38,346 bases of DNA, taken from the NCBI GenBank assembly GCA_045586105.1, contig JAZMZS010000097.1:1-38346 (forward strand), in the 5' to 3' direction. The DNA is from Eubacteriales bacterium (lineage in GTDB: Bacteria; Bacillota; Clostridia; Oscillospirales; CAG-272). Below the pieces are notes generated by a model. That model was not told the origin of the DNA and did not search any database. It saw only the letters and a list, made by a program, of their open reading frames with translations. Position numbers and translations under genes: made by a program. This document shows positions 10,134 through 37,917 of this stretch, one piece after another. The first letter of the stretch is position 1; every line of letters starts with the position of its first letter.

Positions 10134-10135
10134 AG

Positions 10136-10177
10136 AAAAAGCACCCGGAAGCATATGCTTCCGGGTGCCGTTTTTTT
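10136..10177. terminator. Bidirectional intrinsic terminator between the GH13 gene and groEL
   Basis: Perfect 28-bp palindrome GCACCCGGAAGCATATGCTTCCGGGTGC (10141-10168), flanked by A5 and T7, between convergent genes. Confidence 0.85.
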
Positions 10178-10186
10178 AGATTCGGA

Positions 10187-12123
<1,937 letters not shown>

Positions 12124-18400: not shown

Positions 18401-19642
18401 TCAGTCTCTGTTGAAAATATCTCTTGTGTAGACCTTTTCCTTAACGTCATCAAGAACGCTGTCATATCTGTTGGCTATAATTGCGTGGCTCATGCTTTTG
18501 AATCTTTCAAGATCGTTTACTACCTCACTGCCAAAGAAGGTGGAGCCGTCCTCGAGTGTAGGCTCATAAACGATGACCTTGGCGCCCTTTGCCTTGATCC
18601 TCTTCATTACTCCCTGAATAGCACTCTGTCTGAAGTTATCGCTGTTGCTCTTCATAGTAAGTCTGTATACACCAACAACGCTTTCCTTCTCAAGCTTGGC
18701 ATCCCAATCGCCGTTAGCAAGGCTGTAGCCTGCGGTATGAAGAACTCTGTCCGCGATAAAGTCCTTTCTCGTTCTGTTCGACTCAACGATAGCCTCGATA
18801 AGGTTCTCGGGAACGTCAGAATAGTTTGCGAGCAGCTGCTTTGTGTCCTTAGGCAGGCAGTAACCGCCGTAACCGAAGGAGGGGTTGTTATAATGCTCGC
18901 CAATACGGGGGTCAAGGCAGACACCCTTTATGATCTGCTGAGTATTGAGTCCCTTGAGCTCCGCATATGTATCAAGCTCGTTGAAAAAGCTTACTCTGAG
19001 GGCAAGGTAAGTATTGGCAAACAGCTTTACTGCCTCGGCTTCGGTAAAGCCCATGTAAAGAATATCCACATCCTCTTTGATCGCTCCGTGCTTAAGAAGA
19101 CCCGCAAACGTCTTTGCAGCCTCAACAAGACGTTCGTCCTCAAGGTCGGTTCCCACGATTATTCGGGATGGATAGAGGTTATCGTAGAGCGCCTTGCTCT
19201 CGCGCAAGAACTCGGGGCTGAATATGATATTGCTGCTGCCCGTTTTTTCCCTAATGCTCTTGGTGTATCCCACGGGAATGGTAGATTTGATTATCATTAC
19301 AGCATCGGGGTTGACCTTCATCACGGTGGAAATAACATTCTCTACCGCGGAGGTGTCAAAATAGTTCTTCGTTGAGTCGTAGTTCGTAGGCGCCGCTATA
19401 ACTACAAATTCCGCATCCTTGTATGCCGCCTCAGCATCGAGTGTGGCTACAAGATCGAGCTCCTTTGTGGCAAGATACTCTTCTATCTCATTATCCTGGA
19501 TAGGTGATTTTTTGTTGTTGATCATCTCTACCTTCTCGGGTATGATATCAACTGCCGTTACGTGATTGTGCTGTGAAAGAAGAACGCTGATGCTCAGACC
19601 TACGTATCCTGTTCCTGCTACTGCGATATTATGCTTTTTCAT
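18401..19642 (-). CDS. ugd: UDP-glucose 6-dehydrogenase
   Basis: [40 protein letters not shown], catalytic GGYCLPKD; start set at ATG 19642 (GAGGT RBS). Confidence 0.95.
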
Positions 19643-19667: not shown

Positions 19668-20729
19668 TCAATTATAAAACTCTTTATACCACTCGGCAAA
19701 TCTGCGCAGACCTTCCCGCAGTGTGGTGGTGGGCTTGAAGCCGAAATCTCTCTCAAGTGCACTTGTATCGGCAAACGTCACCTCGACGTCTCCCGACTGC
19801 ATGGGAACCAATTTCTTGTGCTTTTCAAAATCGTAGTCCGATGGCAGCACTCCTGCTCTCACAAGCTCCTGCTGGAGGATATCAACAAAGTCAAGCAGGT
19901 TCTCGGGATTGCTGTTTCCTATATTGTAGAGCGAGTAAGGCGCCGAGCGCAAGCCGTTTTCCTCGATCGTGCTCTCGGGTGCCTTCTGCATCACTCTGAG
20001 TACACCTTCAACGATGTCATCTACGTATGTAAAGTCACGCTTGCAGTTTCCGTAATTAAATATCTGTATATCCTCTCCGCGTACAAGCTTGTCGGTAAAT
20101 CCGAAATAAGCCATATCCGGACGCCCTGCAGGTCCGTATACGGTAAAGAACCGAAGGCCTGTGCAAGGTATACCGTAGAGCTTTGCATAAGCGTGAGCCA
20201 TCAGCTCATTTGACTTTTTTGTTGCGGCATACAGTGACACGGGATTATCCACCTTGTCATCTACCGAATAGGGGATCTTCGAATTACTTCCGTACACAGA
20301 GGAGCTCGATGCATAGACAAGATGCTCTACTCCCTTGCTTCCGTTATCATACGAATGCCTGCAAGCCTCAAGAATGTTATAAAAACCGATAATATTTGAA
20401 TCAATATAAACGCCTGGATTTGTGATCGAATATCTTACCCCTGCCTGTGCGGCAAGGTTTACAACTATATCGGGACGATACCTCTCGAATATTCCGTCAA
20501 TAACGCTCTTATCCGATATAGAGTCTCTGATGAACACGAACCGCTCGGAGGGGATCAATTCACCGAGCCTGTACTCCTTGAGGCTGACGTCGTAATAATC
20601 GTTGACGTTATCTATACCGATGACGGTCACATCCGATCGCCCGAGAAGCCTCTTTGCCAGGTTTGCTCCGATAAAGCCCGCCGCGCCTGTCAAAAGGACT
20701 GTTTTGTTTGAAATATCAATTGTTTTCAC
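19668..20729 (-). CDS. NAD-dependent epimerase, UDP-glucuronate 4-epimerase type
   Basis: [55 protein letters not shown]; GTG start. Confidence 0.88.
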
Positions 20730-20754: not shown

Positions 20755-21732
20755 TTATCTTCTGCCGAGGATCTTCAAGACAAGCCTTTTGGCTTTATCC
20801 GTATACTTGTTCATTTTTTTCTTGAACCTATATGAAAAGCCGTATTCGCTGTATTTTTTCGCGATCTTCTCAAATGTAAGTCTGTGATAATCATCCCAGA
20901 ACCGTCCTCTCTCGGGGGGACACGGAAACGGTCCCTTGAGCGGAGGCTGCATGCTGTCCTCAAGCTTTGTCTGCTTGAAATCCACACTATGGCAAGCTCT
21001 CTCGAAATATGTCCTGCCGAGCTCATTGTTTACAAGAACAAGCGAAACACCCTTATCATCGTTAAAGCCGGGTGCCGCCTTGTCAATTCCCCAATAATCG
21101 GCAATAGTGATATCTGCGGGATGCATTACTCCTTTATACGGGCACTTATAGCAGCTCGGTCTGAGAATGTTGTGGGCATAAAACAGTGAAGTATATACAC
21201 GACTGTCTATCTGCTTTCCGTTATCAAGATCTAACGTTTCTATATGGGTAGACCATCCGAAGCGCTTGTTTCGGAAATCAAGGTGCGTGACCTTTGCTCC
21301 GTTCTTGCTCTCCTGCCATGTCAGGTAATCCCTCAGGACGAGTGGGCTCGGAACTCCGTGACATACGATATCCATGCACAAAAGTCCATCATATTCCCCT
21401 CCGAGGAACGCCTTAAGTCCTGCTATCTGACATGAGGTTCCGCTGAAAAGGACCTTTTTGCCTTCGAGCAGATCGACCTTGACGCTTCTGAATATATCAG
21501 ATGTATTACTCTGTACGTATTTTGATCCGCGCATACGGTCACGCTCATCAGCCGTGGCTGCTCTGAGGTGATGCGCAGTAAAGGAATCGTCGAGCACACA
21601 TCCGTATACGATTCCGCCCTCCTCAAGTATCAGATCGGATACTGCTGTAAATATCCCTCCCGATCTGGAAGCCGCACGGATCACTTCGTCCTTATGCTTG
21701 ACAGCATATACGATTGGCTTTTCAAAGTTCAT
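20755..21732 (-). CDS. Coenzyme F420 hydrogenase/dehydrogenase beta-subunit (FrhB/FdhB) family flavo-Fe-S protein
   Basis: SRSGGIF, RGSKYVQS, GTSCQIAGL, DIVCHGVPS, LRPSCYKC, DITIADYWG. Confidence 0.85.
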   Translation of the reverse strand: MNFEKPIVYAVKHKDEVIRAASRSGGIFTAVSDLILEEGGIVYGCVLDDSFTAHHLRAATADERDRMRGSKYVQSNTSDIFRSVKVDLLEGKKVLFSGTSCQIAGLKAFLGGEYDGLLCMDIVCHGVPSPLVLRDYLTWQESKNGAKVTHLDFRNKRFGWSTHIETLDLDNGKQIDSRVYTSLFYAHNILRPSCYKCPYKGVMHPADITIADYWGIDKAAPGFNDDKGVSLVLVNNELGRTYFERACHSVDFKQTKLEDSMQPPLKGPFPCPPERGRFWDDYHRLTFEKIAKKYSEYGFSYRFKKKMNKYTDKAKRLVLKILGRR

Positions 21733-21758
21733 ATAGACCTCTTGATATCATATAATAA

Positions 21759-21998
21759 TTACGCCTTGATATATCCCTTGTTCGTCTGGTCAAGCTTGAA
21801 TGCGCAGACGGACAGGCACTTGAGACACCTGATGCAAATACCCGCATCTATCTCGGGATACAGAAATCCTTCCCCGTCCTCTTTTGCGTATATCGCACCG
21901 ACAGGACATACAGAGAGACATGCAAAGCATCCGCAGCAGTTTTCCTTTTTTTCGTATAACCGAGGGGTCGGATCCTCTTTTTTATTCGATCTATCCAT
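21759..21998 (-). CDS. 2x[4Fe-4S] ferredoxin-like protein
   Basis: CCGCFACLSVCP and CIRCLKCLSVC; own GGAGG RBS. Confidence 0.85.
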   Translation of the reverse strand: MDRSNKKEDPTPRLYEKKENCCGCFACLSVCPVGAIYAKEDGEGFLYPEIDAGICIRCLKCLSVCAFKLDQTNKGYIKA

Positions 21999-22014
21999 TA
22001 TTAGAAAGCCTCCG

Positions 22015-23430
22015 TCATTTTTTGAAGATCATTTTTTTGCCCTTGGCAAGTATCATCTTCATTTCCTTGCGGTTGATCACAAGGAACAAGAGCGCACCTG
22101 CCGCGCTCAGGCACAGGTTCATCACAAGTCCCGAGAAAACACCCGCTATCGTTACGGCAAGAGCAAGAGCAAACAGCGACATAAACTCAAGCCATTTTAT
22201 CGTGACCTTCATCGTTGCTTTTGTGTGATATGCACGAAGCACGAACATTACAAAGAATGCGACAAACGTTGATATTGAAGCGGCATGAAGTCCGATGAAT
22301 TTGATAAGGACAAGGTTTGCCGCCGCATTTATCAAAGCTCCTACAACGCTGGTAATGCCTGCCTTCTTCGTCTGGTCGCTCTTAAGATAGCCTACACCGA
22401 AGAAGGATGAAAACGCCTGAAAAACAGTACCGAGATATAAAAATGATACGTAATCAGCCGAGGTTATATAGCTCTCACTCATTACAAGAGCAATAAAAAG
22501 CTTGGTAAAGGGTATCAAAAACAGCAGCATCGTAAAGGACAGCTTGTAGTAATATCTGAACACGTTAGTATAAAAGCCGTCATTGGAATCGTCCTTGTCT
22601 CCGACTGCCGTATCCTGCCATGATTCATAAAAAATGTTATAAAGCATCTGCAGGATGGATGGAAATTTGTTGGCAACGCCGTAAATACCGTTTGCGGCGC
22701 TTCCGATAAAGAACTTTATAAAATACTTATTGAGAGAGCTGATCGCCCACCAGTTAAGTCTGTTCGGAATAAGCGGAACAGAAAAACCGAGCAGCTCCTT
22801 TTGTGTCTTGAAGGATCCGAGCTTAAGATCGAGCCTTCTCAGACGTTTTTCGAATATCAGCATCGCAAGTATTCCTACGATGTTACCGATTATCGTGCTC
22901 TGGAACAGTGCGATGATGCCCATGTCATAAATGACTACCTGTATGACGTTGAGAACCAGGAAGACGAGCGTATTCAGTATACCCGAAAGGGCGACAAGCT
23001 TCTGGTTATTTAAGCCTCTGAGAAGCTTCTGTACAGTCTGGAAAAGTCTGCCGACTATCAAGAGCCACAGGAAATACTCAAAATACGCGATCGGGAAGAA
23101 GAAATTTACCACTATCATCATCAGCGACCACAGGATCGACGTGAATGTGATAAACTTATAGACTGCCGAAATATACTCTCCCGACTGCTCCTTGTTGCGC
23201 ATCATCCAGGTATATGCACCGTCGGATATCTGCAAGGTTATCAGAGGAGTAAGCAGACTGATATTGGATATTATCAGCTCGTATTCTCCCATATCCGTGG
23301 GAGATATATAATATGTGTAAAAAGGTACGATAAAGAAATTGAGCAGCCTTGGACCGAATGTTCCGACGGCATATATCAATGTTCCTATCAATAACTTTTT
23401 ACTCTTGCTCTGAGAGTTTGTACTGCCCAC
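22015..23430 (-). CDS. wzx: Wzx-type oligosaccharide flippase (MOP superfamily)
   Basis: Many TM helices; FFIVPFYTYYISPTDMGEY, LLGFSVPLIPN, GIYGVANKFP. Start probably GTG 23430 right after the upstream stop; the ORF track gives 23451. Confidence 0.85.
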   Translation of the reverse strand: MGSTNSQSKSKKLLIGTLIYAVGTFGPRLLNFFIVPFYTYYISPTDMGEYELIISNISLLTPLITLQISDGAYTWMMRNKEQSGEYISAVYKFITFTSILWSLMMIVVNFFFPIAYFEYFLWLLIVGRLFQTVQKLLRGLNNQKLVALSGILNTLVFLVLNVIQVVIYDMGIIALFQSTIIGNIVGILAMLIFEKRLRRLDLKLGSFKTQKELLGFSVPLIPNRLNWWAISSLNKYFIKFFIGSAANGIYGVANKFPSILQMLYNIFYESWQDTAVGDKDDSNDGFYTNVFRYYYKLSFTMLLFLIPFTKLFIALVMSESYITSADYVSFLYLGTVFQAFSSFFGVGYLKSDQTKKAGITSVVGALINAAANLVLIKFIGLHAASISTFVAFFVMFVLRAYHTKATMKVTIKWLEFMSLFALALAVTIAGVFSGLVMNLCLSAAGALLFLVINRKEMKMILAKGKKMIFKK

Positions 23431-23431
23431 C

Positions 23432-24514
23432 TTATTTGCCTTTCTGCTCAATTATTCTGAGCAAATACTGTTTTGAAGCCTCGATAAGCCCGTAGATCCT
23501 GCTCTCGCCGTCACATACAAGCAAGCTTTCCTCTCCCGGGTCTCTGTCGGGATAAATTATCCTGCTGCTGCTCGAAATATTGTTTGCGAGCTGCTCGAGG
23601 CGGGCATTTCTCGTAGAATGCGATACGATATACAGGTCCTTTGCGAATATGGATGCAAATGCCGCTCCGTGAAAAGAATTGGTCACGACGGCACAGCTGT
23701 GATCTATCAGATACAGAAATTCCTCGGGGGACACAGCTTCTATCTTCTTTCCCGGGAAATCCGCGCCGACAGTTCCTCCTCCGCGTACCCAGACGATCCC
23801 CGCTCCGTACTTTTCGGATACACGGTTCAATGCGGCTCTGAGGTGTGGTGTATCCTCCATGACATATGAAAATACGTACTTTTTCGGACACGTGACACGA
23901 GCCTCGACCTGCTCCCATTCTTTTTTATCAAGCAAAAATACGGGATCTGCGGTAAGCGGGCATGCTACCCCTGTGCTTTCGGTTACATGATCGCACAGAT
24001 CCTGCTCTCTTGCCGAAATGCAGGTGAAGGATGAGGCGTACTTGTCGATCATGACTTTGTCCTGCGCTGTCAGCACGCGGCCTACGCTTGCGGAATAAGT
24101 GTACTTCGGCTTGTCGGTAAAATCAAGATAGAATGCGGAGTTATTTCCGTTCAGATCCGTATTCCAGATCTGATCGCTGCCTGCAATATAGGCGTCATAG
24201 TTATCGTTTTTCGGAATCGACTCCGTGTAATATTCGGGATCGAATTCTATATATTTGCTTCTGAAGGCTTCAAACTTCTGTCTCTTTATCCTGTTGATAT
24301 ATCTTGTCTTGAAGCCCGAAAGCTTAGAGAGCAGCGTGCTTCTCCGAGGCTCGGCGGCAGCTGTGCTCTTCCCTTTTGCCTTGTACTTAAGGTGCAGATG
24401 GCGCACCTCTGCTCCTTTGTCCGAAAGAAAGTGCTGGAGAGCATACGCCTGCAGCAAAGCGCCGATATTATCTGCACACGAAAAGGTCAATATCCCTATT
24501 TTCATTTTTTGCAT
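23432..24514 (-). CDS. Polysaccharide pyruvyl transferase family protein
   Basis: IGILTF..DNIGALLQAYAL, AGSDQIWN, ISARE, DPVFLL, VVTNSFHG. Confidence 0.88.
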   Translation of the reverse strand: MQKMKIGILTFSCADNIGALLQAYALQHFLSDKGAEVRHLHLKYKAKGKSTAAAEPRRSTLLSKLSGFKTRYINRIKRQKFEAFRSKYIEFDPEYYTESIPKNDNYDAYIAGSDQIWNTDLNGNNSAFYLDFTDKPKYTYSASVGRVLTAQDKVMIDKYASSFTCISAREQDLCDHVTESTGVACPLTADPVFLLDKKEWEQVEARVTCPKKYVFSYVMEDTPHLRAALNRVSEKYGAGIVWVRGGGTVGADFPGKKIEAVSPEEFLYLIDHSCAVVTNSFHGAAFASIFAKDLYIVSHSTRNARLEQLANNISSSSRIIYPDRDPGEESLLVCDGESRIYGLIEASKQYLLRIIEQKGK

Positions 24515-25617
24515 CTCTCCTCTGCCGGGCTTTCTTCTCCGCTGTACAAGATGTCATATTTCTTGATGACGTTTTCGATATCGTAAGAGCTCATGTCAAC
24601 ATAGTGTCTGCCGTTTTCGTGGCTGCTGAGATGCTCGTGTATCTTCTCCGCCCATCCCGAAGCGCCGAGCGAAAGGGGTATATACGTGCAATTGCCGAGA
24701 TCCGCTTCTGACGGAACTACATCCGAAGCGTAGCAATACATTCCCATCGCCTGTGCTTCTATAAGCACTATCCCGAGCCCCTCGAACTTCGAAGGAAATA
24801 CAAAAACGTCATTTTCGCTCATTATCCTCGGAATATCCGAATCATGCGGAAGCATATCGACCCTATCCTCAAGCCCGAGCTCAATGATCTTATTCTTGAT
24901 ATCTTCCTTTTCCGAACCAAATCCGATCATGGTAAGATGTGCATCACCAAAACAAGACGTATATTCGCGGAACATGTCGAGCAAAAAGGACTGGTTCTTC
25001 TGATCGCAGTAACGGCCGACGTGCATCATTCTGAGCTCTGTGCCGCTCTTTCTTTCGGGATACAGATCCTTATTGTATTTTTTGAGATCTATAGCATTAT
25101 TAACGACCTCCGCATCTGCATCACCGAACAAAAACTCACACGCTCCGCGTGAGCATCCGATCCTTGCAGTGGAGTATTTCCCGATAAGCTTGCTGTAACG
25201 GCTGTTGTACAGGCAGTAAATAAAATTATTTGTGTTGCCGACACTTGTATTGTGCGAATGCGCTATCCTGACCTTTATTCCCGCTTTTTTTGCAGCATGA
25301 AGAGAGATAGCACTCTCGAAATAATTGTGTGCATGCACCGCGTCATACGGACCGTTTTCGCGTATTACCCTTGATATGCCCTTAAGCAGCCTGTTGTATC
25401 TCAGATAAAAATCGAATCTGCTGTTTTTTACGGGAACAACAAAGACCTTCCCTCCGTAGCTCTCAAACTCATCCTTATAATAGTCGTCTGAGTTGAAGCA
25501 CACTATATCGAATAAATATTTAAAGCTAAGTCTTCTGACAATAGACATTATGACAGCCTGCGCACCCCCGTTACCGAGACCTGTACACGAAACCATCAGA
25601 ACCTTTTTCTTTTGCAT
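24502..25617 (-). CDS. Glycosyltransferase, GT4 (EpsF-like)
   Basis: GNGGAQ, RIAHSHN, HVGRYCDQKNQ, FPSKFEGLGIVLIEAQ. Confidence 0.9.
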   Translation of the reverse strand: MQKKKVLMVSCTGLGNGGAQAVIMSIVRRLSFKYLFDIVCFNSDDYYKDEFESYGGKVFVVPVKNSRFDFYLRYNRLLKGISRVIRENGPYDAVHAHNYFESAISLHAAKKAGIKVRIAHSHNTSVGNTNNFIYCLYNSRYSKLIGKYSTARIGCSRGACEFLFGDADAEVVNNAIDLKKYNKDLYPERKSGTELRMMHVGRYCDQKNQSFLLDMFREYTSCFGDAHLTMIGFGSEKEDIKNKIIELGLEDRVDMLPHDSDIPRIMSENDVFVFPSKFEGLGIVLIEAQAMGMYCYASDVVPSEADLGNCTYIPLSLGASGWAEKIHEHLSSHENGRHYVDMSSYDIENVIKKYDILYSGEESPAEERCKK

Positions 25618-25641: not shown

Positions 25642-26883
25642 TCAAGCCTCATCTTCCTCTGTTGAAGCAAATTTCAGAACATACGTAGCAGCGATCGTCA
25701 AAAGCACCTGGTAATAAATAAATGTTATATAAACGAGCGCCACCGACAAAATAACGATCGAAGTGAAAATAAACAAGCAAAGGATCGTCATCTTTTTATT
25801 GCTGTTGTTGGCTTTGCTTCTCGAGGCTAAGCAACGGTAATATATTATAGGATAGCTGAAATAGAAAACGATAAAGCCTACAATTCCGTTGTTCATCAGG
25901 ACCTCGACGAAATTGCAGTGAGAATAAGTACCGAAATGACTATAGGAGGCGGCAGTACCTTCTCCTATAAACGGACTCAGCGTAAACAATCTGAATCCCT
26001 CTTCAATAAAGTACTTTCTGTTGTTGTCACCGCTGTTTCCTCCGCCGTTTACGAGCAGATCGAAGAATTCCTCTATTCTCGAGCGAAGCAGAGCAAACGC
26101 CGAAACATTATAGACCATATACAGGAAAACTCCGACAATAAGTACCACGATCAGCGTGTTCTTGATCTTGGATGCCATGCCCTTTTTCTTGTGCTCTCTG
26201 AAAAAGAAGAGGAAGGTAAAGCCGAATACAAGAAGTATCAACACTTTTTTGGATGCGGTAATAAATGAGAAGAATACACCAATTGCACAAGCAGCCAAAT
26301 AGAGGAGCTTCTTTATTTTCGAGCTTTTTTCATTCAGGAAAAAATAGAGTGCGATCAGTGCACCGTAGCAGGATTTCAGACCGACATCGTTTGCATTTCC
26401 CGCAACCTCTCCTACTCTCGTCTCATTCATGATGGCATCGATAAACCCTGAGCCGTATATTGAAACGACATAGACATTCAGTACCAACCCGCCGATCATC
26501 AAAGCCTTAAAAAGGAATGAGATATCCTCTTCGGTCTCAATGAAATTTACAAGGCAGAAGGTGATGCATATTACAACAAACAGATCGTAAAGGAAGGTCA
26601 TTGCATAGCTGCTCGCAGAATACAGGCATCCGAGCATCGAGATAAGGAAGAATGCGATCATCGACAACGAATAAGCATTGAATTTCAGCGAGCCTCTGAC
26701 AAGAATGCAAAGCGCACTCACTCCAAGAAAGAAGTACAATGCATATGAGTTGAGCATCATCAGATATGATTGCGATGCAAACGCCATATTGCAGACGATA
26801 TACAAAAACGCCGAGATCTTCCACAGAAGCCGCAGGTCCTTGTTAAGCACCGATATGCTTTTTTCGGAATTTGATAAAGTCAT
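25642..26883 (-). CDS. wzy: Wzy polymerase / O-antigen ligase-like membrane protein
   Basis: About 10-12 TM helices; GNANDVG, TASKK, PFIGEG, YSHCNFVEVL..NGIVG (Wzy_C-like); inside a Wzx locus. Confidence 0.75.
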   Translation of the reverse strand: MTLSNSEKSISVLNKDLRLLWKISAFLYIVCNMAFASQSYLMMLNSYALYFFLGVSALCILVRGSLKFNAYSLSMIAFFLISMLGCLYSASSYAMTFLYDLFVVICITFCLVNFIETEEDISFLFKALMIGGLVLNVYVVSIYGSGFIDAIMNETRVGEVAGNANDVGLKSCYGALIALYFFLNEKSSKIKKLLYLAACAIGVFFSFITASKKVLILLVFGFTFLFFFREHKKKGMASKIKNTLIVVLIVGVFLYMVYNVSAFALLRSRIEEFFDLLVNGGGNSGDNNRKYFIEEGFRLFTLSPFIGEGTAASYSHFGTYSHCNFVEVLMNNGIVGFIVFYFSYPIIYYRCLASRSKANNSNKKMTILCLFIFTSIVILSVALVYITFIYYQVLLTIAATYVLKFASTEEDEA

Positions 26884-26893
26884 ATTACACCTT

Positions 26894-27973
26894 TTATTTC
26901 TTTTTACTTATGATATCTCCGAAGAAATTCTCCCACCGAGTAACGATATGATCGATACGCAGGGTCTCTCTGACCCCGTATGCGCGCTCACCGAGCCTTT
27001 GTGCAAGGACACGGTCCGAGAGTACACGCCTCAGCGCATCGGCAAAAGCCTCCGCATCTCCGCATGGGGTGATAAGTCCGTTTACGCCGTCCTCGATCAG
27101 CATTCTCGCTCCGCCGGGCGAGCAGTCAGCGGAAACACATGCAAGCCCGAGTGCCATTGCCTCGGCAAGAGCATTCGGCATTCCCTCGTAATCTGAGGTG
27201 AACGCAAAAATCTCCGCGCCTCTTATCCGTTCTCCGACGTTCGATACGTTTCCGCAAAAAACGACCCGATCCTCAACTCCGAGAGAGGATGCCTGAGCCT
27301 TAAGCTTATCCATAAGCTCACCGTCTCCGTATATTTCGAGCGTATACTCCGGAAATTCATCCTTTATACGTGAGAAGGCATCAATAAGCATTGCCTGGTT
27401 CTTCTGCTCCGTAAGACGTCCGACGTTTACTATTCTCTTTTCACGCACGCCCTCATGAGGATCGACAAGAGCGGCTGAATTTATAGGATTCAATATAACG
27501 GTACTCTTTTTCTGAATACCTCTGCCAAAGCACTCTTTTGCTCCGTTCGTCTGAAAAACGGCACCCTCAGCCATATTGAATGCAGCGTCTCGGATCATCA
27601 CCCTGAGCCTGCTTGTATTCTTTCCGTCGATGTTTTTCGGATCGTTTCTCTCACACACCACAACAGGGTACTTCGAGAAAGCAAGAGCAAAGCAGGTGTA
27701 TATGCACTGATAAGTCATGAAGGGCACAACTATATCGGGGTCGTATTTATACACAAATCTTCTGATATTCTTAATAACATCCGACATGCTGCCAATCTTA
27801 TCCTCAGAGAAAATCTCTACCGCCTCGTGAAGAGGATAGACACATTCTCTGCTCGCTTTTGTCGCATATATGCCGACCTCGTGTCCGCGCGCCGCAAGCT
27901 CGCTTGAAATGACTGATATGACACGCTCAGCTCCTCCGAAGCCCATAGCGGAGGTGATAAACAATATTTTCAT
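26894..27973 (-). CDS. Glycosyltransferase, GT4
   Basis: GGAERV, CERNDP, VGRLTEQKNQ, SDYEGMPNALAEAM; start set at ATG 27973 (GGAG RBS). Confidence 0.9.
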   Translation of the reverse strand: MKILFITSAMGFGGAERVISVISSELAARGHEVGIYATKASRECVYPLHEAVEIFSEDKIGSMSDVIKNIRRFVYKYDPDIVVPFMTYQCIYTCFALAFSKYPVVVCERNDPKNIDGKNTSRLRVMIRDAAFNMAEGAVFQTNGAKECFGRGIQKKSTVILNPINSAALVDPHEGVREKRIVNVGRLTEQKNQAMLIDAFSRIKDEFPEYTLEIYGDGELMDKLKAQASSLGVEDRVVFCGNVSNVGERIRGAEIFAFTSDYEGMPNALAEAMALGLACVSADCSPGGARMLIEDGVNGLITPCGDAEAFADALRRVLSDRVLAQRLGERAYGVRETLRIDHIVTRWENFFGDIISKKK

Positions 27974-27991
27974 ATAACGCTCCAATGAAAG

Positions 27992-29071
27992 TTATTTCTT
28001 CAGTAGCTTGTTGTATATTTCGATATATCCCTCAGCCATATTATCCGCAGAGAAGAAGACCGATCTTTCCTTTGCCGCTCTTCCGCAGCTTCCTCTGAGC
28101 TCTCTGTCAGAGAGCATTCGGATGACCGCATCGGCGATAGCATCGTCATTACATTCGCACAAAAGACCGTGCTTTTCATGTTCGATCATATCTACCACGC
28201 CGCCAACAGGTGTCGCAACGATAGGAAGCCCTGTTGCCATGGTCTCTATGAGGGTTATAGGCATTCCCTCGTAATTAGAGCAAAGCAGGAACATATCGCT
28301 TTTGCTCATAACGCTGTATATCTTATCTGTGGTTCCGCAGAAGTTTACATGATCATCAAGAGACAACTCATGACAAAGCTCCCTGCACCTCTGCTCGAGC
28401 TCTCCCGCACCGTACAGGTTCAATCTGGCATTTGGGAATCTCTCTGTGACCTTCGCAAAGGCTCTCAATATACCCTCGTGATTTTTTTGATAATTGAAGC
28501 GTCCGACATGAAGTAAATTTATCTCTTCTCCAAAAGAATAATCCATTTTAGGAATGCAATTGGAGAGATCAATTCCGTTATAGACCATCCCGATATTCTC
28601 TGCGGGAAGTCCGTATTCCTCAATAACCGTCTCCTTTATCACAGGGCTGATCGAAACGGGATACATCCCGAGCCTCTTGTAAAAGAAGGAATTCAGCTTT
28701 CTGTCTGTGGAGCCGACCTCCTTTGACGCCATGTTGTGAATAGTATGCACATGATGCTTGACCCCCGAAAGGATCGCCGCGGGCGTCGCATATCTCGCAA
28801 GATATCTGTGAGTGTGTATGACATCCGGCTTTATTCTTTTGAACACGGAACGCATTTTGGGGATCATGCTCAGGTCAAAGCCGCTTTTTTTATCAAGATA
28901 TACTACCTCTATCCCTTTCGCTTCCAATCTATCGGTGATCGGAGTGTGCTTGGTATACATACTGACCACTGTCACGTCATGCCCTCTTGCAGTAAGTGCA
29001 TAGGTCAGATTTTCAGTCCCTATCTCAGCACCTGCGAGATCAAACTCGGGCATCAGCTGAATTATTTTCAT
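27992..29071 (-). CDS. Glycosyltransferase, GT4
   Basis: AGAE, HTIHN, HVGRFNYQKNH, SNYEGMPITLIETM. Confidence 0.9.
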   Translation of the reverse strand: MKIIQLMPEFDLAGAEIGTENLTYALTARGHDVTVVSMYTKHTPITDRLEAKGIEVVYLDKKSGFDLSMIPKMRSVFKRIKPDVIHTHRYLARYATPAAILSGVKHHVHTIHNMASKEVGSTDRKLNSFFYKRLGMYPVSISPVIKETVIEEYGLPAENIGMVYNGIDLSNCIPKMDYSFGEEINLLHVGRFNYQKNHEGILRAFAKVTERFPNARLNLYGAGELEQRCRELCHELSLDDHVNFCGTTDKIYSVMSKSDMFLLCSNYEGMPITLIETMATGLPIVATPVGGVVDMIEHEKHGLLCECNDDAIADAVIRMLSDRELRGSCGRAAKERSVFFSADNMAEGYIEIYNKLLKK

Positions 29072-29095: not shown

Positions 29096-30007
29096 CTACA
29101 ATCTTTCTGTCAGCTTTTGAATTGCCTTTGCGGCAAATGCCCGTTTGGGCTTAAAAAACGATCTTTGGTATTCCTGCCACTTTTTTGAATACTCATCATA
29201 GACAGCTTGTCCTGTCAGGTCATACATTACATTAAGCTGTGCTATATGGAGTTTATGATAGAACGGGCTTGTCAGCCTCTTGGATCTATCGTAATAAGAC
29301 CAGTATCTGCAGTCATACGCAGGCAGGGTCTTGGCGAGTGTGGCAAGAGTAAGCGAATAGATCTCATTTATACTCTCATCTCCCGTGAGCTTTACGTAAT
29401 CGTAAAGACACCAAAGCGAGAATATCCAACCGTTGAGAACTACCGTGCGGGTGGGGTCTGTGTGCTCGCAAAGATACACTTCATCTCCCTCGTACTGTGT
29501 GCATCCGCCCTCGCTTAAAGGGATCAACATAAAATCTATTGCCCGCTTGGCGGCGGTAAGATACTTTTCATCGCCGTTTTGGGTATATACCCTCATAAAC
29601 AGGCATGCCGCCTCGGACTGTGCCATAGAAGAATACGGATGCTCGGGATAGATGTATGCAAAGGTCTTCCACCCTCCGCGTTCCTCCTGATTATCATAGA
29701 GCCACCCTGCACATGCTTCGGCTATTTCAAAGAACTTCTTTTCGTCCTTCTCCAGATAAATATCAAATGCACCGAGACCGTATTGTGCGATCTCTATAGG
29801 AAAGCATATCGTCTGACCGTCATCGGTAACGGTACTCGGGATCTCCGGCGAGTCATCCCTTTTATGCACCTTTTCCCTGAGGTCATTATAAAAACCGGCA
29901 ACCTTCTCCTTGGAATAAAACCTTCCCTCGCCTTGCTCAACGTGGTAAATGCTTTTCCCGAGAACCATGTTTGTCCATTTTTTTACTAAATGGAGATTGA
30001 ATGACAT
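29096..30007 (-). CDS. D-glucuronyl C5-epimerase family protein (GLCE-like)
   Basis: PIEIAQYGL, YSSMAQSEA, VLNGWIFSLWCLYDY, SYYD, FYHKLHIAQL match recalled GLCE motifs (PIQIAQYGL, YSAMAQG, VLNGFMYSL.GLYD, YHTTHINQL); start set at ATG 30007 (GAGGT RBS). Confidence 0.85.
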   Translation of the reverse strand: MSFNLHLVKKWTNMVLGKSIYHVEQGEGRFYSKEKVAGFYNDLREKVHKRDDSPEIPSTVTDDGQTICFPIEIAQYGLGAFDIYLEKDEKKFFEIAEACAGWLYDNQEERGGWKTFAYIYPEHPYSSMAQSEAACLFMRVYTQNGDEKYLTAAKRAIDFMLIPLSEGGCTQYEGDEVYLCEHTDPTRTVVLNGWIFSLWCLYDYVKLTGDESINEIYSLTLATLAKTLPAYDCRYWSYYDRSKRLTSPFYHKLHIAQLNVMYDLTGQAVYDEYSKKWQEYQRSFFKPKRAFAAKAIQKLTERL

Positions 30008-30033
30008 ATTTACCTCTCTGTTACAAAAGATAC

Positions 30034-31071
30034 TCAGCCTATTCGCTCTATCATCGGAGCTATAGCATTCGCGGGCAGATATATCTCTGCTTTTTTCCTG
30101 CAAAAAGGCTTCATATCAATTATGATGTTCGGTTCTTGCGCAATTTTGTTCAGCGTGGATATAAGATCATCGTTGTTTTCAAACTCGTATCCGATACCGC
30201 TCCTGCCCTCATCCACTATATCCGAAAAGCTCTCCCATCTCGCACTGATCACGGGAACGCCCGCCGCATATGCATCAACTATCGTCCCCGGTACACCCTC
30301 GGTATAGAAAAGAGTAGGAAACAAAAGAGCGAAGTAATCCTTAAGCACCGATACGCTCTCATCAAACGGAACACAGCCGAGATAATTTACATATTCGGGA
30401 AAGCTCTCCTTGAGCTGCTCGAACCACTCCGTCTGCGAGCTGTCGACGGGACCGTAAATATCAAGAGTATATACCGTCCTTCCGTGCGCTTCGTTAACGG
30501 CTCTGACCGCCGCTGCAGCCTCTTCCATTCCCTTTTCCTTCATAACTCTGGAAAAGGTACACAGCCTGTAGGGCTCTGTATACTCCGATGCCATCTCCTC
30601 GGCCGGGATGATACTCAGATCCTTGAAGTTTGCGATCACCGAAATGTTCTCGAACCCTCTGGCTTCAAGCGCATTCTTCATCGTAGTAGTTTCAACGAAT
30701 ATGCAGTCAAAGCATTTGAGCTTGCTCTCGAGGGAAGGCTTGTCCGAAATGAACTTGGCGAGCCATCCGCCTATGACCGAATAATATATCTTCTTTTTGA
30801 ATATTTTTTTCAGAAGTACAAACAGCGGTGAAAATATCTTTATTCCGTTGTGAGCGGGAAACATCATGCACGCATCACAGGTCATAAACAGCCCTACAGT
30901 CCCGAAAAGCACAGGCAGGGCGCGCTTTTTGATGTTATATGTATCTACAGTTTTGATATTCTCTTTACCGTAGTGTCCGCACATAGCCGAATAGACGGTT
31001 TTCGTCTTTACGGTCTGGCCGTCAAGAAAGGTCTTTTTCCCGCCGAAATGTCCGCAAATACCGATCTTCAT
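30034..31071 (-). CDS. Glycosyltransferase, GT4-like
   Basis: DGQTVKT, FSRVMKEKG, FPTLFYTEGVPGTIVDAY; next to the initiating transferase. Confidence 0.85.
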   Translation of the reverse strand: MKIGICGHFGGKKTFLDGQTVKTKTVYSAMCGHYGKENIKTVDTYNIKKRALPVLFGTVGLFMTCDACMMFPAHNGIKIFSPLFVLLKKIFKKKIYYSVIGGWLAKFISDKPSLESKLKCFDCIFVETTTMKNALEARGFENISVIANFKDLSIIPAEEMASEYTEPYRLCTFSRVMKEKGMEEAAAAVRAVNEAHGRTVYTLDIYGPVDSSQTEWFEQLKESFPEYVNYLGCVPFDESVSVLKDYFALLFPTLFYTEGVPGTIVDAYAAGVPVISARWESFSDIVDEGRSGIGYEFENNDDLISTLNKIAQEPNIIIDMKPFCRKKAEIYLPANAIAPMIERIG

Positions 31072-31090: not shown

Positions 31091-31774
31091 TTACTTCAGA
31101 ACTGCGATCACAGTTCTGAACATGGTTTTTATATCAGAAAAGAAGTTGAAGCGCTCTATTGCCTCAAGGTTGTATTTCATCTTTTCGGGAAGAATGTCAT
31201 TTACGTATGTATCGTCAGCATTCTCTGCGTTCTCGAGAAGCTTCTCCTCATCCTTGTAGCATATCGACGCCTCGCTCGTTACACCCGCGGGAAGGAGCAG
31301 CGTTGCCTTCATCTCGTCGGTATAGCGGTCTACGTATTTGACTACCTCGGGGCGTGTCCCGACAAGTGTCATGTCTCCAAGAAAGATATTGAACAGCTGC
31401 GGAAGCTCATCGATTCTTGTTTTTCTGATAAGCGAACCGACCTTTGTTACTCTCGAGTCATTTTTTGTAGTTACGAGAGAGCCCATCTTGTCGGCATTAT
31501 TTACCATAGTACGGAACTTGAATATGCGGAAGCGTCTGCCGTACTGCGTTACTCTTTCCTGTCTGAAAAATACAGGTCCGGGAGAATCGAGCTTGATCAC
31601 AACAGCAAGTATCAACAGCACAGGCCAGATCAGAAGCAGCAGGACGAGCGACACAAGAATATCAAACGTCCTCTTGAAAAACAAGCTTGCTTTCTTTTTT
31701 GAAAGTATATCGTAATACTTCTTCACCGCATCGTTCTGAAGCTCTGCGGGAAGATCGGTAAATTTCTTCAGCAT
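31091..31774 (-). CDS. Initiating undecaprenyl-phosphate sugar-1-phosphate transferase (monotopic PGT, AATGal-P transferase-like)
   Basis: KRTFDI, PGPVFFRQERV, KFRTMV, RKTRIDELPQL, GDMTLVGTRPE. Confidence 0.92.
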   Translation of the reverse strand: MLKKFTDLPAELQNDAVKKYYDILSKKKASLFFKRTFDILVSLVLLLLIWPVLLILAVVIKLDSPGPVFFRQERVTQYGRRFRIFKFRTMVNNADKMGSLVTTKNDSRVTKVGSLIRKTRIDELPQLFNIFLGDMTLVGTRPEVVKYVDRYTDEMKATLLLPAGVTSEASICYKDEEKLLENAENADDTYVNDILPEKMKYNLEAIERFNFFSDIKTMFRTVIAVLK

Positions 31775-32391
31775 TATACAAGGTCCTTCCGAAAACAGAT
31801 TTTATCCTTTGTTTGCTCTGCGATATCATATCCGAGCTTCTTATAAAAAGCAAGACCGCGGGGATTCGAGGTTTCACAGGTAAGATAGCAGACCTTATGA
31901 CCGTGCTCGAGCAGAACCTCGTTATACCTGTTTACCATTTCGACCGCTGCTCCCGTGCCGCGCATTTCCTTTGTGACACAGATAGAGAGAAGATCCCCCT
32001 CTCCCGTTTTGTCGATCGGGGAAGCCGTCTGCTCCTCGGCGGGAGCTTTTTTCCTGCTCAGGGTCTTTTTTACCTTGCCCCATGCAAGCTTATCAAAGCG
32101 CAGAAGCAGCCCGAGCACCTTCATCCCCATGGCAAGCCTGTTATTCTTCATAAAGTTGGATATGGCATTAGTCTTGCCAAGCACGTACCCCATAACGAAG
32201 CCGACCATCTTCCCCTCATCGTTTTCGCAAACAAGGAAAAGATGCGGAGCCTCCTTGTAAAACTCAAGATAGTACTTTGTCAGCAGTTTTTTTCCGAGTC
32301 GGGTGCTGAAGCTGTCGGGAAAGCATTCGGCGTGCACGTCGCATACCGTACCAAGATCCTGCTCCTGAGCCGCTCTTATAGTATAACCCAT
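31774..32391 (-). CDS. GNAT family N-acetyltransferase
   Basis: LLSICVTKEMRGTGAA (acetyl-CoA motif A), SNPRGLAFYKKLGY; stop overlaps the PGT start. Confidence 0.85.
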   Translation of the reverse strand: MGYTIRAAQEQDLGTVCDVHAECFPDSFSTRLGKKLLTKYYLEFYKEAPHLFLVCENDEGKMVGFVMGYVLGKTNAISNFMKNNRLAMGMKVLGLLLRFDKLAWGKVKKTLSRKKAPAEEQTASPIDKTGEGDLLSICVTKEMRGTGAAVEMVNRYNEVLLEHGHKVCYLTCETSNPRGLAFYKKLGYDIAEQTKDKICFRKDLV

Positions 32392-32436: not shown

Positions 32437-33654
32437 TTATTCTGCTAAAAGGCTGACGAGATTATCCGTAATATACTTCACATCCTCATCCGAGAGCAGT
32501 GTATGCAGAGGCAGCGTGACCTCTCTCTCGTAATGCGAGTATGCTCTCGGGTAGTCCTTTATATCGAATCCAAGATTTTTATACGCGCTGAGAAGCGGCA
32601 GGGGCTTATAATGGACGTTGGAGGTTATTCCCCTCTGAGCGAGAGAAACGATAAGTGCATTCCTCTTCTCGGTATCAAACCCGGGTATCTCCATTATATA
32701 AAGATGTCCGCTCGAACAGGAGGAGCCTTCGTAATGAGGCAGCACCTTAACTCCCAAAGGAAGCAATGCACTGTTGTACATTTCAATTATTTCTTTTCTT
32801 CTCGCAAGAAGCCCATCGTATCTGTCAAGCTGAACAAGTCCTATAGCAGCCGCATAGTCTGTCATATTGCACTTGTATGCGGGATAAACGATATCATACT
32901 CCCACGCACCAATCTGGGTCTTGGCAAGCGCATCCTTTGTCTGACCGTGAAGCGATGCAAGCATATATTGCTTGTAGAGCCATTCGTTGTCAATTCCGTC
33001 GATATCTCTCCAGCATACAGCACCGCCCTCACCTGTGGTAAAGTTTTTTACCGCGTGGAAGGAGAAGGAGGTAAAGTCAGCGACCTCCCCGCTCATTTTT
33101 CCGTCCTTTTTCGCACCAAAGCCGTGAGCGCTGTCGGATATAACAGCGATCCTGCCGAGCGCCTTCTGTATCGGATTATCGGAAGGAGCAAACACTCCCT
33201 TCTTCGCCTCTGCCACAGAGAAGATCTTATCGTAATCGCACATGCATCCACCGATATCGACGCACATGACCGCCTTTGTTTTTTCGTTTACAGCCTCTGC
33301 CATAAGGTCATAGTCCATTTCGAGGCTGTCGGTCTGGCAATCCACTATACGCAGTGTAGCGCCGACATGGCATACAACAGAAGCGGTCGCGGTATATGTA
33401 TAAGCGGGAACGATGACCTCGTCTCCCGCGCCTACTCCGAGAATTCTCAGCGTAAGCTCCATTGCCGCAGTAGCGGAATTGAGGCAGACGGCTCTTGAAG
33501 TATGTACGTAGTGCGCTATTCTCTCTTCAAGAAGCTTTGTTCTCTTGCCTGTGGTTATCCAGCCGCTTCTGAGGGCAGCACAAACCTCTTCTATCTCCGC
33601 CTCGGTAATATCGGGGGGAGAAAACGGAATGTTTCTGATAGCTAATTCGCTCAT
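32437..33654 (-). CDS. DegT/DnrJ/EryC1/StrS PLP-dependent sugar aminotransferase (AATGal-synthesis type)
   Basis: NIPFSPPDI, SGWITTG, LNSATAA, SDSAH, SFHAVKNFTTGEGG, YKCNMTD; start set at ATG 33654. Confidence 0.93.
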   Translation of the reverse strand: MSELAIRNIPFSPPDITEAEIEEVCAALRSGWITTGKRTKLLEERIAHYVHTSRAVCLNSATAAMELTLRILGVGAGDEVIVPAYTYTATASVVCHVGATLRIVDCQTDSLEMDYDLMAEAVNEKTKAVMCVDIGGCMCDYDKIFSVAEAKKGVFAPSDNPIQKALGRIAVISDSAHGFGAKKDGKMSGEVADFTSFSFHAVKNFTTGEGGAVCWRDIDGIDNEWLYKQYMLASLHGQTKDALAKTQIGAWEYDIVYPAYKCNMTDYAAAIGLVQLDRYDGLLARRKEIIEMYNSALLPLGVKVLPHYEGSSCSSGHLYIMEIPGFDTEKRNALIVSLAQRGITSNVHYKPLPLLSAYKNLGFDIKDYPRAYSHYEREVTLPLHTLLSDEDVKYITDNLVSLLAE

Positions 33655-33726
33655 GATAATACCTCTCAATCAAGTTGTTTGCTGATGTGATCTTTGTTTT
33701 GCGCAGCAGAGCGTGCTGCTTGTGTC

Positions 33727-35613
33727 TTATTCCTTTCCCTTTTTGGGAGCAAGTATAGTAGAAGGAACGTATGTATCAACGATATCGAGAACAAGTTCTC
33801 TTATGTTGTCGCAGTTATCGTAGCACGCATACTTAAGTTTTTCGAGCTTTGTGTAGAAGGTGGTATCCTCGATCTCTATCGGCTTTCCGATGTAGATAAG
33901 CTCGTTGTCCGTCTTTGAAAGTCCTTCCTCACCCATCAAAAGCTCCTCATAAAGCTTCTCGCCGGGACGAAGACCCGTGTATTCGATCTTGATATCGACA
34001 TCGGGCTCGTAGCCCGAAAGTCTGATAAGGTTTCTGGCAAGGTCATCGATCTTGACGGGAGCTCCCATATCGAGAACGAAGATCTCGCCTCCCTTGGCAT
34101 AATACCCTGCCTGAAGTACAAGGGAAACAGCCTCGGGAATAGTCATAAAGTATCTGATTATGTCGGGATGAGTAACGGTAACAGGACCCCCCTCCTCGAT
34201 CTGTCTCTTGAACAGGGGAATAACAGAGCCGTTCGAGCCGAGAACATTACCGAATCTTACGGCAACAAAATCCGTCTCGCTCGTTTTGTCAAAGGTCTGC
34301 ACGATCATTTCACAAAGTCGCTTGGATGCGCCCATGATATTCGTAGGATTGACCGCTTTATCGGTGGAAATAAGGACAAACTTCTCCGCCTGATACTTTA
34401 TAGCGCAGCTCGCAGTCTTGAAGGTTCCGAAAACATTGTTCTTTATAGCCTCATTGGGACTATTTTCCATAAGAGGAACGTGCTTATGAGCGGCTGCATG
34501 GTAAACTATCTGAGGACGGTATTCCTTGAAGACGGAATCCATCCTTCTCGTGTCACGCACAGATGCAATAATCACGTGAAGATCAAGCTCGGGGTACTTT
34601 CTGACAAGCTCCTGCTGAATATCGTATGCATTATTCTCATATATATCAAGTATGATAAGTCGCTTGGGATTATGAGAGGCGATCTGCCTGCAAAGCTCGC
34701 TTCCGATAGATCCGCCGCCACCGGTGACCATTATTACCTTTCCCGAAAGCTCATCAAGTATTTCATCGAGGTTGACCTTGATAAGATCGCGTCCGAGCAG
34801 ATCCTCTACCTTAACATCTCGAATAGCACCGGTCACTATCTGACCTGTCACCATTTTCTCTATACTGGGAAGGATCTTCAAAGTGCAATTAACACTCTTG
34901 CAGACATTGAGGATATTACGCTTCTCCTCTGCCGAAATATTCGTGATGGCAAAGATTATCTGCTCGATCTCGAATTTCTGTGCAGCCTGGAGAATAGCCG
35001 TTCTGTCCCCCACAACGGGAACACCGTCGATATGACAACCCGTTTTCTCGGGATCATCATCTATTATGCATACGGGATTTATAAAAATATCGGGATTGTT
35101 GAGATACTCCCCGATAACGGTTCTGCCCGCATTACCCGCACCGATGATCATGGTGTTTATCATATTACCTCTGTGAGACTTTACCCTGACAGAGGAACGG
35201 ACGAATCTCATTATACGCAGAGATCCGCGGGAAAGAAGAACAAACATAAACTGTGTCATAAAAGACATACAGTAAACAGACCACGGAAATCTGCCGTAAA
35301 GCCCCCAGGTAAGAGCAAGCCCGACTACGTTTGAAACGATAACGGCAATGCAAACCTTACCGATCTCGTTCAATCCGAAATAATTCCACAGCATGTTATA
35401 AAGCTGGCAAAGCCAATAGACCGCAACCGAAATACAAGCAACAGTCAGACACGCCTGCGGAAGCACCTCAACATACTGGGGCTCGATCGATGAATATCTG
35501 AAATCGAACCTGGCAAGCAGGGCAAGAAAAAACGATCCCGCTGCAACCAGAAGATCAAGTAAAACAAATATCAAAGCGTAAAAAACCTTTTTTGATGTTA
35601 TCTTTTTCAACAT
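33727..35613 (-). CDS. Membrane-anchored UDP-GlcNAc 4,6-dehydratase (CapD/PglF family)
   Basis: N-terminal TM helices, IIGAGNAG, VTGGGGSIGSELCRQ, HAAAHKHVP, ISTDKAVNPTNIMGASKR, RFGNVLGS; start set at ATG 35613 (GGAGG RBS); the longer ORF-track start runs through the promoter. Confidence 0.93.
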   Translation of the reverse strand: MLKKITSKKVFYALIFVLLDLLVAAGSFFLALLARFDFRYSSIEPQYVEVLPQACLTVACISVAVYWLCQLYNMLWNYFGLNEIGKVCIAVIVSNVVGLALTWGLYGRFPWSVYCMSFMTQFMFVLLSRGSLRIMRFVRSSVRVKSHRGNMINTMIIGAGNAGRTVIGEYLNNPDIFINPVCIIDDDPEKTGCHIDGVPVVGDRTAILQAAQKFEIEQIIFAITNISAEEKRNILNVCKSVNCTLKILPSIEKMVTGQIVTGAIRDVKVEDLLGRDLIKVNLDEILDELSGKVIMVTGGGGSIGSELCRQIASHNPKRLIILDIYENNAYDIQQELVRKYPELDLHVIIASVRDTRRMDSVFKEYRPQIVYHAAAHKHVPLMENSPNEAIKNNVFGTFKTASCAIKYQAEKFVLISTDKAVNPTNIMGASKRLCEMIVQTFDKTSETDFVAVRFGNVLGSNGSVIPLFKRQIEEGGPVTVTHPDIIRYFMTIPEAVSLVLQAGYYAKGGEIFVLDMGAPVKIDDLARNLIRLSGYEPDVDIKIEYTGLRPGEKLYEELLMGEEGLSKTDNELIYIGKPIEIEDTTFYTKLEKLKYACYDNCDNIRELVLDIVDTYVPSTILAPKKGKE

Positions 35614-35698
35614 ATATTCCTCCAAAGATAAGAAGCCGCAAGCTGCAGCATTGATAAAAATGCAAATGTTATCTCTTATAATTAATTCAAACATATAT

Positions 35699-35727
35699 AT
35701 AATAGCATAATAAGAAGTAAATTTCAA
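35699..35727 (-). promoter_or_regulatory. SigmaA promoter of the polysaccharide operon
   Basis: Minus strand TTGAAA-N17-TATTAT with extended TGn, about 85 nt upstream of the CapD-family start. Confidence 0.65.
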
Positions 35728-37058: not shown

Positions 37059-37105
37059 TTCAAATCTGCAATAATCTATTCTTTTAGCTTTAAGGAAGTT
37101 TACAA

Positions 37106-37878: not shown

Positions 37879-37917
37879 GCACACTTCTCACTTTATTCTT
37901 AAGGAAGGTGGACAAGA

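Follow-up and report, generated by a model that had tools for sequence, protein, structure and literature searches.

The window analysed here, the whole 38,346 nucleotide (nt) stretch of contig JAZMZS010000097.1 from a Eubacteriales bacterium, contains a group of four neighbouring genes in which a member of the polysaccharide pyruvyl transferase family is found together with a flippase, a small ferredoxin-like protein and a relative of the coenzyme F420 hydrogenase beta subunit FrhB. The four core genes, with protein lengths in amino acids (aa), are:

23432-24514, minus strand: PS_pyruv_trans gene, 360 aa (PF04230, E 1.4e-27, 97.8 bits against a gathering cut-off of 25.3)
22015-23451, minus strand: Wzx-type flippase, 478 aa, between the transferase and reductase genes (PF01943, E 3.2e-15)
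21759-21998, minus strand: 2x[4Fe-4S] ferredoxin-like protein, 79 aa (Fer4_7, E 2.8e-9)
20755-21732, minus strand: FrhB/FdhB-fold protein, predicted to be a flavo-iron-sulfur protein, 325 aa (PF04432, E 7e-23, and PF04422, E 6e-8)

Where adjacent core genes do not overlap, the gap between them is 26 nt or less, and all four are part of one co-oriented operon which extends from approximately 35829 to 18401 on the minus strand. The preliminary description of this DNA had placed the four genes, co-oriented and tightly packed, in a glycan operon, which is confirmed by the coordinates, the strand and the Pfam matches.

The FrhB-like protein reached 81.6 bits for PF04432 (cut-off 23.3) and 33.1 bits for PF04422 (cut-off 22), and PF04432 was matched by all 79 aligned reductase homologues. 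Its AF2 model (pLDDT 95.8, pTM 0.91) was compared to known structures using Foldseek. The best matches were FdhB (7bkb_E, 6e-14), FrhB (4ci0_C, 9e-14) and the chlorophyll-cycle reductase HCAR (5dqr_F, 2e-12), and further matches were FrhB (9r51_B, 6qii_B), FrhB-like subunits of other F420-reducing complexes (8rja_E, 8riu_B) and the F420-dependent sulfite reductase. The TM-score of these matches was about 0.55 with an identity of 14-20%. A phmmer search with the protein alone against the PDB sequences found nothing significant; the profile and fold searches did match. The cysteines C101, C124, C194 and C197 are invariant across the 79 sequences and are candidate ligands of a [4Fe-4S] cluster.

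The score for the FrhB equivalog TIGR03289 was 21.4 bits (cut-off 331.5) and that for NF006807 was 23.5 bits (cut-off 269), both of which are below the threshold. No FrhA/FrhG or FdhA partner was found among the 16 operon open reading frames (ORFs) and the 15 other window ORFs scanned. Since the score lies far under the equivalog cut-off and a hydrogenase or dehydrogenase partner is missing from the scanned ORFs, the window protein is, judged by its sequence, not a genuine F420-hydrogenase beta subunit. It shares its fold with FrhB/FdhB and HCAR, but differs from the FrhB/FdhB systems in the low identity, in the missing FrhA/FrhG/FdhA partner and in its location in a glycan locus. BciB is a further reductase with the FrhB fold alongside HCAR. 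F420 production is not known from the host lineages.

The ferredoxin gene adjoins the FrhB-like gene, comparable to the N-terminal or adjacent ferredoxin domain in Fsr (7np8). In all 22 aligned homologues, both CxxCxxCxxxC motifs of the 79-aa protein are fully conserved. For 64 of 92 FrhB-like ORFs the ferredoxin domain is fused to the N-terminus and for 26 it is encoded by a separate adjacent small ORF, whereas the remaining two, which are second tandem copies, have none. Because it is fused or adjacent for 90 of the 92 ORFs, the ferredoxin is regarded as part of the reductase. A complex prediction for the FrhB-like protein, the ferredoxin and the transferase gave scores of 0.00, 0.37 and 0.01, which speak neither for nor against binding. 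Two tandem FrhB-like paralogues are present in six loci (L007, L010, L013, L014, L018 and L048; e.g. L048:8992-10020 and 10001-10993). The second copy has only about 32% identity with the window protein, and one small ferredoxin ORF is usually shared by both paralogues.

The window transferase shares the family PF04230 with the ketal-forming pyruvyl transferases WcaK, CsaB and Pvg1p, and PF04230 was matched by all 61 aligned transferases (that of the window and 60 from the loci scanned below). No significant BLASTP similarity to WcaK was found (E 0.29) and the NCBIfam WcaK equivalog was not matched; the score for the CsaB equivalog was 34.8 bits and thus below the cut-off of 213.1. A weak match to the Pvg1p structure 5ax7 was obtained. 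The AF2 model (pLDDT 90) has a GT-B-like fold, for which Foldseek returned generic GT-B matches only (UDP-GlcNAc 2-epimerases and glycosyltransferases), so that enol-ether and ketal chemistry are not separable by this comparison. The motif positions G112/D114, D190 and H282 are conserved inside the aligned subfamily.

To assess the size of the FrhB-like family, 1.84 billion cluster representatives were searched, resulting in 12,946, 10,612 and 6,539 matches at E≤1e-3, E≤1e-10 and E≤1e-30, respectively, the last number being clusters at 50% identity. At least 7,999 relatives are of near length. Longer relatives of 570-2000 aa accounted for 2,674 matches, the best 120 of which were examined. In 108 of these 120 a PF04230-PF04432 fusion was identified, in most cases together with Fer4 and with a length of about 770 aa. 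The other 12 comprise three fusions to Wzx (P0125, P0128, P0144), two to a hexapeptide acyltransferase, one to Acyl_transf_3, one to Ugd and five proteins consisting of Fer4 and FrhB only.

The gene neighbourhood is in line with these fusions. Annotated plasmid regions were inspected for four of eight matching records (Ruminococcus albus, Pseudobutyrivibrio xylanivorans, Desulfotalea psychrophila and Bacteroides finegoldii; three phyla), and the transferase gene was zero to two genes away from the FrhB-like gene in all four. On R. albus 7 pRUMAL02 (L001:5224-6467) and P. xylanivorans MA3014 pNP95 (L003:6705-7758), the FrhB-adjacent transferase is annotated as two pieces and may be broken.

For a wider comparison, one genome per species was scanned, yielding at least 600 confirmed relatives, and the best 80 loci, from Bacillota, Bacteroidota, Spirochaetota and Actinomycetota, were used. 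Genes were called as six-frame ORFs, which is a crude procedure, and transferases were detected with two jackhmmer seeds and a Pfam check, taking the nearest copy where two were present. The second seed covers a divergent transferase clade, which a Pfam scan of 17 loci revealed in seven of them. A transferase was found in 61 of the 80 loci and lies on the same strand as the FrhB-like gene in 60 of these 61. It is fused in three loci, adjacent in 25, separated by one gene in 24 and by two to four genes in nine. In 52 of the 61 loci it is thus at most one gene away from the FrhB-like gene, compared to 18.1 expected for a transferase at a random gene slot within each fetched locus span (P ~5e-21). 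The pairing of transferase, FrhB-like protein and ferredoxin is not due to chance, and the co-occurrence of both families that the preliminary description had put forward for measurement does exceed the random expectation. Of the 24 loci with one gene in between, 19 have a Wzx-like gene in this position, and the order transferase-wzx-ferredoxin-FrhB therefore represents a recurrent cassette. Candidate cultured strains with an intact module are Ruminiclostridium cellobioparum DSM 1351 (L082), Ruminiclostridium sufflavum DSM 19573 (L039), Gallintestinimicrobium propionicum (L048) and Bacteroides hominis (L036). Together with the Wzx fusions, the cassette order would fit an action at the membrane before flipping, without proving such action.

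A parallel with a described sugar structure is provided by Escherichia coli. Lactyl groups on D-glucose are listed for the O124 and O146 O antigens in a review, which also cites a title describing glucose etherified with (S)-lactic acid for O146 (PMC7685785). E. coli ATCC 8739 belongs to O146 according to its annotated wzx and wzy genes. Its galF-gnd cluster contains rfbBDAC, a nitroreductase-family gene, wzx, a PF04230 gene, a glycosyltransferase (GT) gene of family GT4, wzy, a GT2 gene and a GT gene split by IS1. No MurA- or MurB-like gene was found in this cluster, and by gene content nothing except the transferase and the flavoreductase remains to explain the lactyl group. The colanic-acid cluster, which contains WcaK and was used as a ketal control, has neither an FrhB- nor a nitroreductase-type partner, whereas the window transferase has FrhB-like and ferredoxin neighbours.

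The transferases of the window and of O146 are 26% identical in an end-to-end alignment (E 2e-25). In a tree of 73 rows rooted with WcaK (quick search, SH-aLRT support only, no bootstrap), both fall into one clade of 51 rows of FrhB-partnered transferases (SH-aLRT 95), in which the O146 protein is sister to an FrhB-partnered transferase of Prevotella (support 84). The two systems also share the flippase between transferase and reductase, the flavoreductase partner and the Wzy-dependent locus. They differ in the reductase, which is a PF00881 nitroreductase fold without an iron-sulfur protein in O146 and an FrhB-fold protein with a 2x[4Fe-4S] protein in the window. Lactyl-glucose is reported for the O146 polymer (PMC7685785).

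Six longer relatives of the O146 nitroreductase were found, four of which are fusions of PF00881 and PF04230 with a length of 720-730 aa. Two unrelated flavoreductase families thus join one transferase family, which argues that the transferase product needs reducing. A distant blastn search with the O146 nitroreductase and transferase genes in 5,426 E. coli genomes matched only 17 genomes, all of type O146. Other lactyl serogroups of E. coli are O58, O69, O124 and O150; O112ac, O149 and O156 are ketal serogroups. In the O146 nitroreductase-family protein (L086:4062-5054, 330 aa), PF00881 covers residues 160-330, and the N-terminal 155 residues are without a Pfam match. Since IS1 splits the glycosyltransferase gene in the ATCC 8739 cluster (L086:11030-12618), a complete O antigen may not be made by this strain.

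In Klebsiella, transferase genes are listed for four types without a pyruvylated capsule, namely K8, K22, K37 and K66, and the same capsule gene list gives a bare count of two nitroreductases and one 'coenzyme F420 hydrogenase' (PMC4616057). For K22, a reference title in PMC3857182 names 4-O-[(S)-1-carboxyethyl]-D-glucuronic acid, and K37 is stated there to differ from K22 in acetylation only. PMC11989651 contains nothing on the structure of K66, and in PMC8657804 and PMC11766843 carboxyethylidene (ketal) groups only are described. Apart from the gene count in PMC4616057, literature searches combining pyruvyl transferase with F420 or nitroreductase revealed no FrhB-like link. For polysaccharides of the rumen bacterium Butyrivibrio fibrisolvens, in which 1-carboxyethyl sugars are reported, the literature search found nothing. 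The preliminary description knew of no enzymes assigned to lactyl sugars. An assignment is available for E. coli, where wfeP is named for the lactyl sugar of O124 in the review cited above (PMC7685785).

Taken together, we consider it probable, by analogy with these systems, that the module transfers an enolpyruvyl group and subsequently reduces it with electrons from ferredoxin, giving lactyl-ether surface sugars. What we infer here is the chemistry together with the electron donor and acceptor. In a first step, the PF04230 enzyme would move the enolpyruvyl group of phosphoenolpyruvate (PEP) to a sugar hydroxyl and stop at the enol ether without ketal closure, the most likely acceptor being the undecaprenyl-diphosphate-linked repeat unit on the cytoplasmic face. 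In a second step, the FrhB-fold protein with its flavin and its own [4Fe-4S] cluster would reduce the C=C bond to a 1-carboxyethyl (lactyl) ether. A low-potential donor, which may be reduced ferredoxin, would pass electrons to the 2x[4Fe-4S] protein and through it to the FrhB-fold protein. Finally, the co-inherited Wzx would flip the modified unit, which Wzy would polymerise. The preliminary description had suggested the same division of labour between transferase and flavo-iron-sulfur partner, and the suggestion gains indirect support from the 108 fusions among the best 120 longer relatives, the O146 cluster, the PF00881-PF04230 fusions and the K22/K37 structures.

The two-step logic itself is already known from MurA/MurB and from F420 synthesis. 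MurA transfers the enolpyruvyl group from PEP, followed by the flavin-dependent reduction to a lactyl ether by MurB. The likeness to the proposed module is one of mechanism only, since the proteins are non-homologous: MurA has the EPSP-synthase fold and MurB its own fold, compared to the GT-B-like PF04230 fold and the FrhB fold in the window. Neither a PF00275 EPSP-synthase-fold transferase nor a MurB-type reductase was found among the operon Pfam matches. The acceptor of MurA/MurB is a nucleotide sugar and the donor NADPH, whereas the window module would probably act on a lipid-linked oligosaccharide and probably use ferredoxin. MurA is described in PMC6801904.

In F420 synthesis, the nitroreductase-fold domain of FbiB has been shown to reduce the enolpyruvyl methylene to an (S)-lactyl group, with PEP and not 2-phospholactate being used and the reduction following the transfer (PMC6450877). 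As in the proposal, a PEP-derived enolpyruvyl group is reduced by a flavoenzyme post-transfer, according to the same source. F420 synthesis differs in that a phosphodiester on a deazaflavin is formed and not a sugar ether, and its reductase shares the nitroreductase fold with the O146 partner but not with the window protein. The archaeal reductase of dehydro-F420-0 ('CofX') is stated to be unknown in this source (PMC6450877), which makes it another orphan enolpyruvyl reduction. The clusters of E. coli and Klebsiella already imply a route using PF04230 and a nitroreductase. The FrhB-fold, ferredoxin-linked partner, a putative reductase, is new relative to the papers found in the above literature searches.

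Several observations weigh against an enolpyruvyl transfer with subsequent reduction as the common function. The sequence alone does not separate the enol-ether from the ketal product of a PF04230 enzyme. A second clade of FrhB-partnered transferases (11 rows, L071 type) is nearer to WcaK and has the best score against CsaB; it is not accounted for by the simple model. The same applies to the fusions of FrhB-like proteins to acyltransferases, which carry PF00132 (P0122, P0123) or PF01757 (Acyl_transf_3; P0233). P0124 resembles P0122 and P0123, but PF00132 is not listed for it. The remaining two of the six longer nitroreductase relatives are fused to GT2 (P0241 with 170 member sequences, and P0242). 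For Klebsiella K8, which also has a transferase gene, no lactyl group is known to us.

Furthermore, no transferase was found in 19 of the 80 FrhB-like loci within the flank that was read. For seven of these the upstream flank is shorter than 2.7 kb, and in two of the short-flank loci, L019 and L061, the sequence breaks off in a Wzx gene, which would be expected of a truncated cassette. Six glycan loci (L015, L022, L034, L040, L055 and L058) are without a transferase within about 5 kb, the downstream flank of L055 being 529 nt only, and six FrhB-like loci are located in non-glycan contexts (L017, L029, L041, L043, L045 and L083). Because of the loci without a transferase and those in non-glycan contexts, the FrhB-like family is not tied to the transferase alone, and its fold serves other substrates too.

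These observations are relevant for the best surviving alternative, in which the transferase forms an ordinary pyruvate ketal and the FrhB-like/ferredoxin pair performs a redox reaction unrelated to pyruvylation on the same glycan, e.g. on a keto-sugar or an unsaturated acyl group, as a co-travelling modification cassette. The acyltransferase fusions that lack a pyruvyl transferase, the six glycan loci with no transferase in the flank that was read and the partnered clade near WcaK and CsaB are all in its favour. We nevertheless regard it as unlikely, given that single-polypeptide fusions to the transferase dominate (108 of the best 120), that a non-homologous flavoreductase is also fused to the same transferase family, and that the O146 lactyl group has only the transferase and the reductase left to explain it, while a reductase is missing from known ketal systems, the colanic-acid cluster among them.

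Considerably less probable is a reversed order of the two steps, in which the reductase makes 2-phospholactate or another activated lactyl donor from PEP and the PF04230 enzyme transfers the lactyl group. This order would involve the same gene content as the transfer-first order. It would counter the chemistry of MurA and the pyruvyl transferases, which relies on the enol double bond of PEP. No precedent is known to us for a substitution at the secondary carbon of phospholactate, which also counts against it. Although 2-phospholactate had long been taken as the lactyl donor in F420 synthesis, the paper on FbiB shows PEP to be the compound used there and places the reduction after the transfer (PMC6450877).

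A role of the FrhB-like/ferredoxin unit as a redox sensor or structural partner, gating pyruvylation in response to the redox state of the cell without acting on the glycan, is very improbable: iron-sulfur domains often act as sensors and the module is largely confined to anaerobes among the loci seen, but 79 diverse sequences have kept the fold of catalytic type and the four putative cluster cysteines, and the replacement of the unit by a nitroreductase-family enzyme in O146 and in the fusions points to a needed reduction and not to sensing.

Beyond the window, we lean slightly towards a generalisation of the enolpyruvyl transfer and reduction pathway. The thousands of genes that carry the annotation 'coenzyme F420 hydrogenase/dehydrogenase beta subunit' and lie in the glycan loci of anaerobes from gut, rumen and sediment would then encode ferredoxin-dependent enolpyruvyl-ether reductases and their PF04230 partners enolpyruvyl transferases, with lactyl ethers being common and predictable from the genome, and with the nitroreductase type occurring in facultative enterobacteria and the FrhB type in strict anaerobes. 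If true, a function would be assigned to a very large protein family with a misleading name, and the pyruvyl transferase family would split into ketal-forming and enol-ether-forming members. Lactyl (1-carboxyethyl) sugars, which could then be predicted from genomes, are charged, acid-stable epitopes that in gut and rumen bacteria affect serotype, recognition by phages and antibodies, and the properties of the polymer. The two reductase types would represent a non-homologous replacement of one pathway step that follows the oxygen lifestyle.

The remaining genes of the operon, all assigned by Pfam matches, are:

33727-35829, minus strand: CapD-like dehydratase, the real start of which is probably later
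32437-33669, minus strand: DegT aminotransferase
31774-32391, minus strand: GNAT protein
31091-31774, minus strand: small phosphoglycosyl transferase
30034-31071, minus strand: GT
29096-30103, minus strand: C5-epimerase-like protein with the D-glucuronyl C5-epimerase C-terminal domain PF06662 (E 4e-39)
27992-29071, minus strand: GT4 glycosyltransferase
26894-27985, minus strand: GT4 glycosyltransferase
25642-26883, minus strand: Wzy
24502-25617, minus strand: GT4 glycosyltransferase
19668-20729, minus strand: NAD-dependent epimerase, UDP-glucuronic acid (UDP-GlcA) 4-epimerase-like
18401-19642, minus strand: UDP-glucose 6-dehydrogenase Ugd

By this gene content, the operon from 35829 to 18401 is classified as a Wzy-dependent glycan locus. 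It contains four glycosyltransferases of the GT1/GT4 type, and the CapD-like dehydratase, the DegT aminotransferase and the GNAT protein make up a predicted bacillosamine-type set. The occurrence of the PF06662 protein together with Ugd and the UDP-GlcA 4-epimerase-like gene in one operon hints at an epimerisation of uronic acids at the polymer level.

The remainder of the window contains a glycogen operon, groEL and housekeeping genes. In addition, an operon of the FeFe-hydrogenase type begins at 36561-38346 on the plus strand, divergent from the glycan operon, and encodes a NuoE-like 2Fe-2S protein, a DRTGG protein, a HATPase_c protein and a Fer4 protein. The preliminary description had stated that hydrogenase and F420 genes are absent from the locus. 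This is correct for the glycan operon, as none were found among the Pfam matches of its 16 ORFs, but not for the window, in which the hydrogenase-type operon is located just upstream. This operon could be a source of reduced ferredoxin.

Two of the contexts without a transferase show further features. The FrhB-like genes of Sphaerochaeta (L029:8230-9324, L043:6920-8152 and L045:9773-10912) share a conserved non-glycan context with a peroxiredoxin, a CHASE3-PAS-GGDEF-HD sensor, two MFS transporters, a methyltransferase and a class-V aminotransferase. Since this context is conserved and unrelated to glycans, it points to a different substrate for the Sphaerochaeta branch. In L022, a pair of paralogous ORFs (L022:7803-9984), each about 367 aa long and with only a weak GDSL-like match, is located directly upstream of the FrhB-like gene amid MBOAT acyltransferases, and may encode an alternative partner enzyme.

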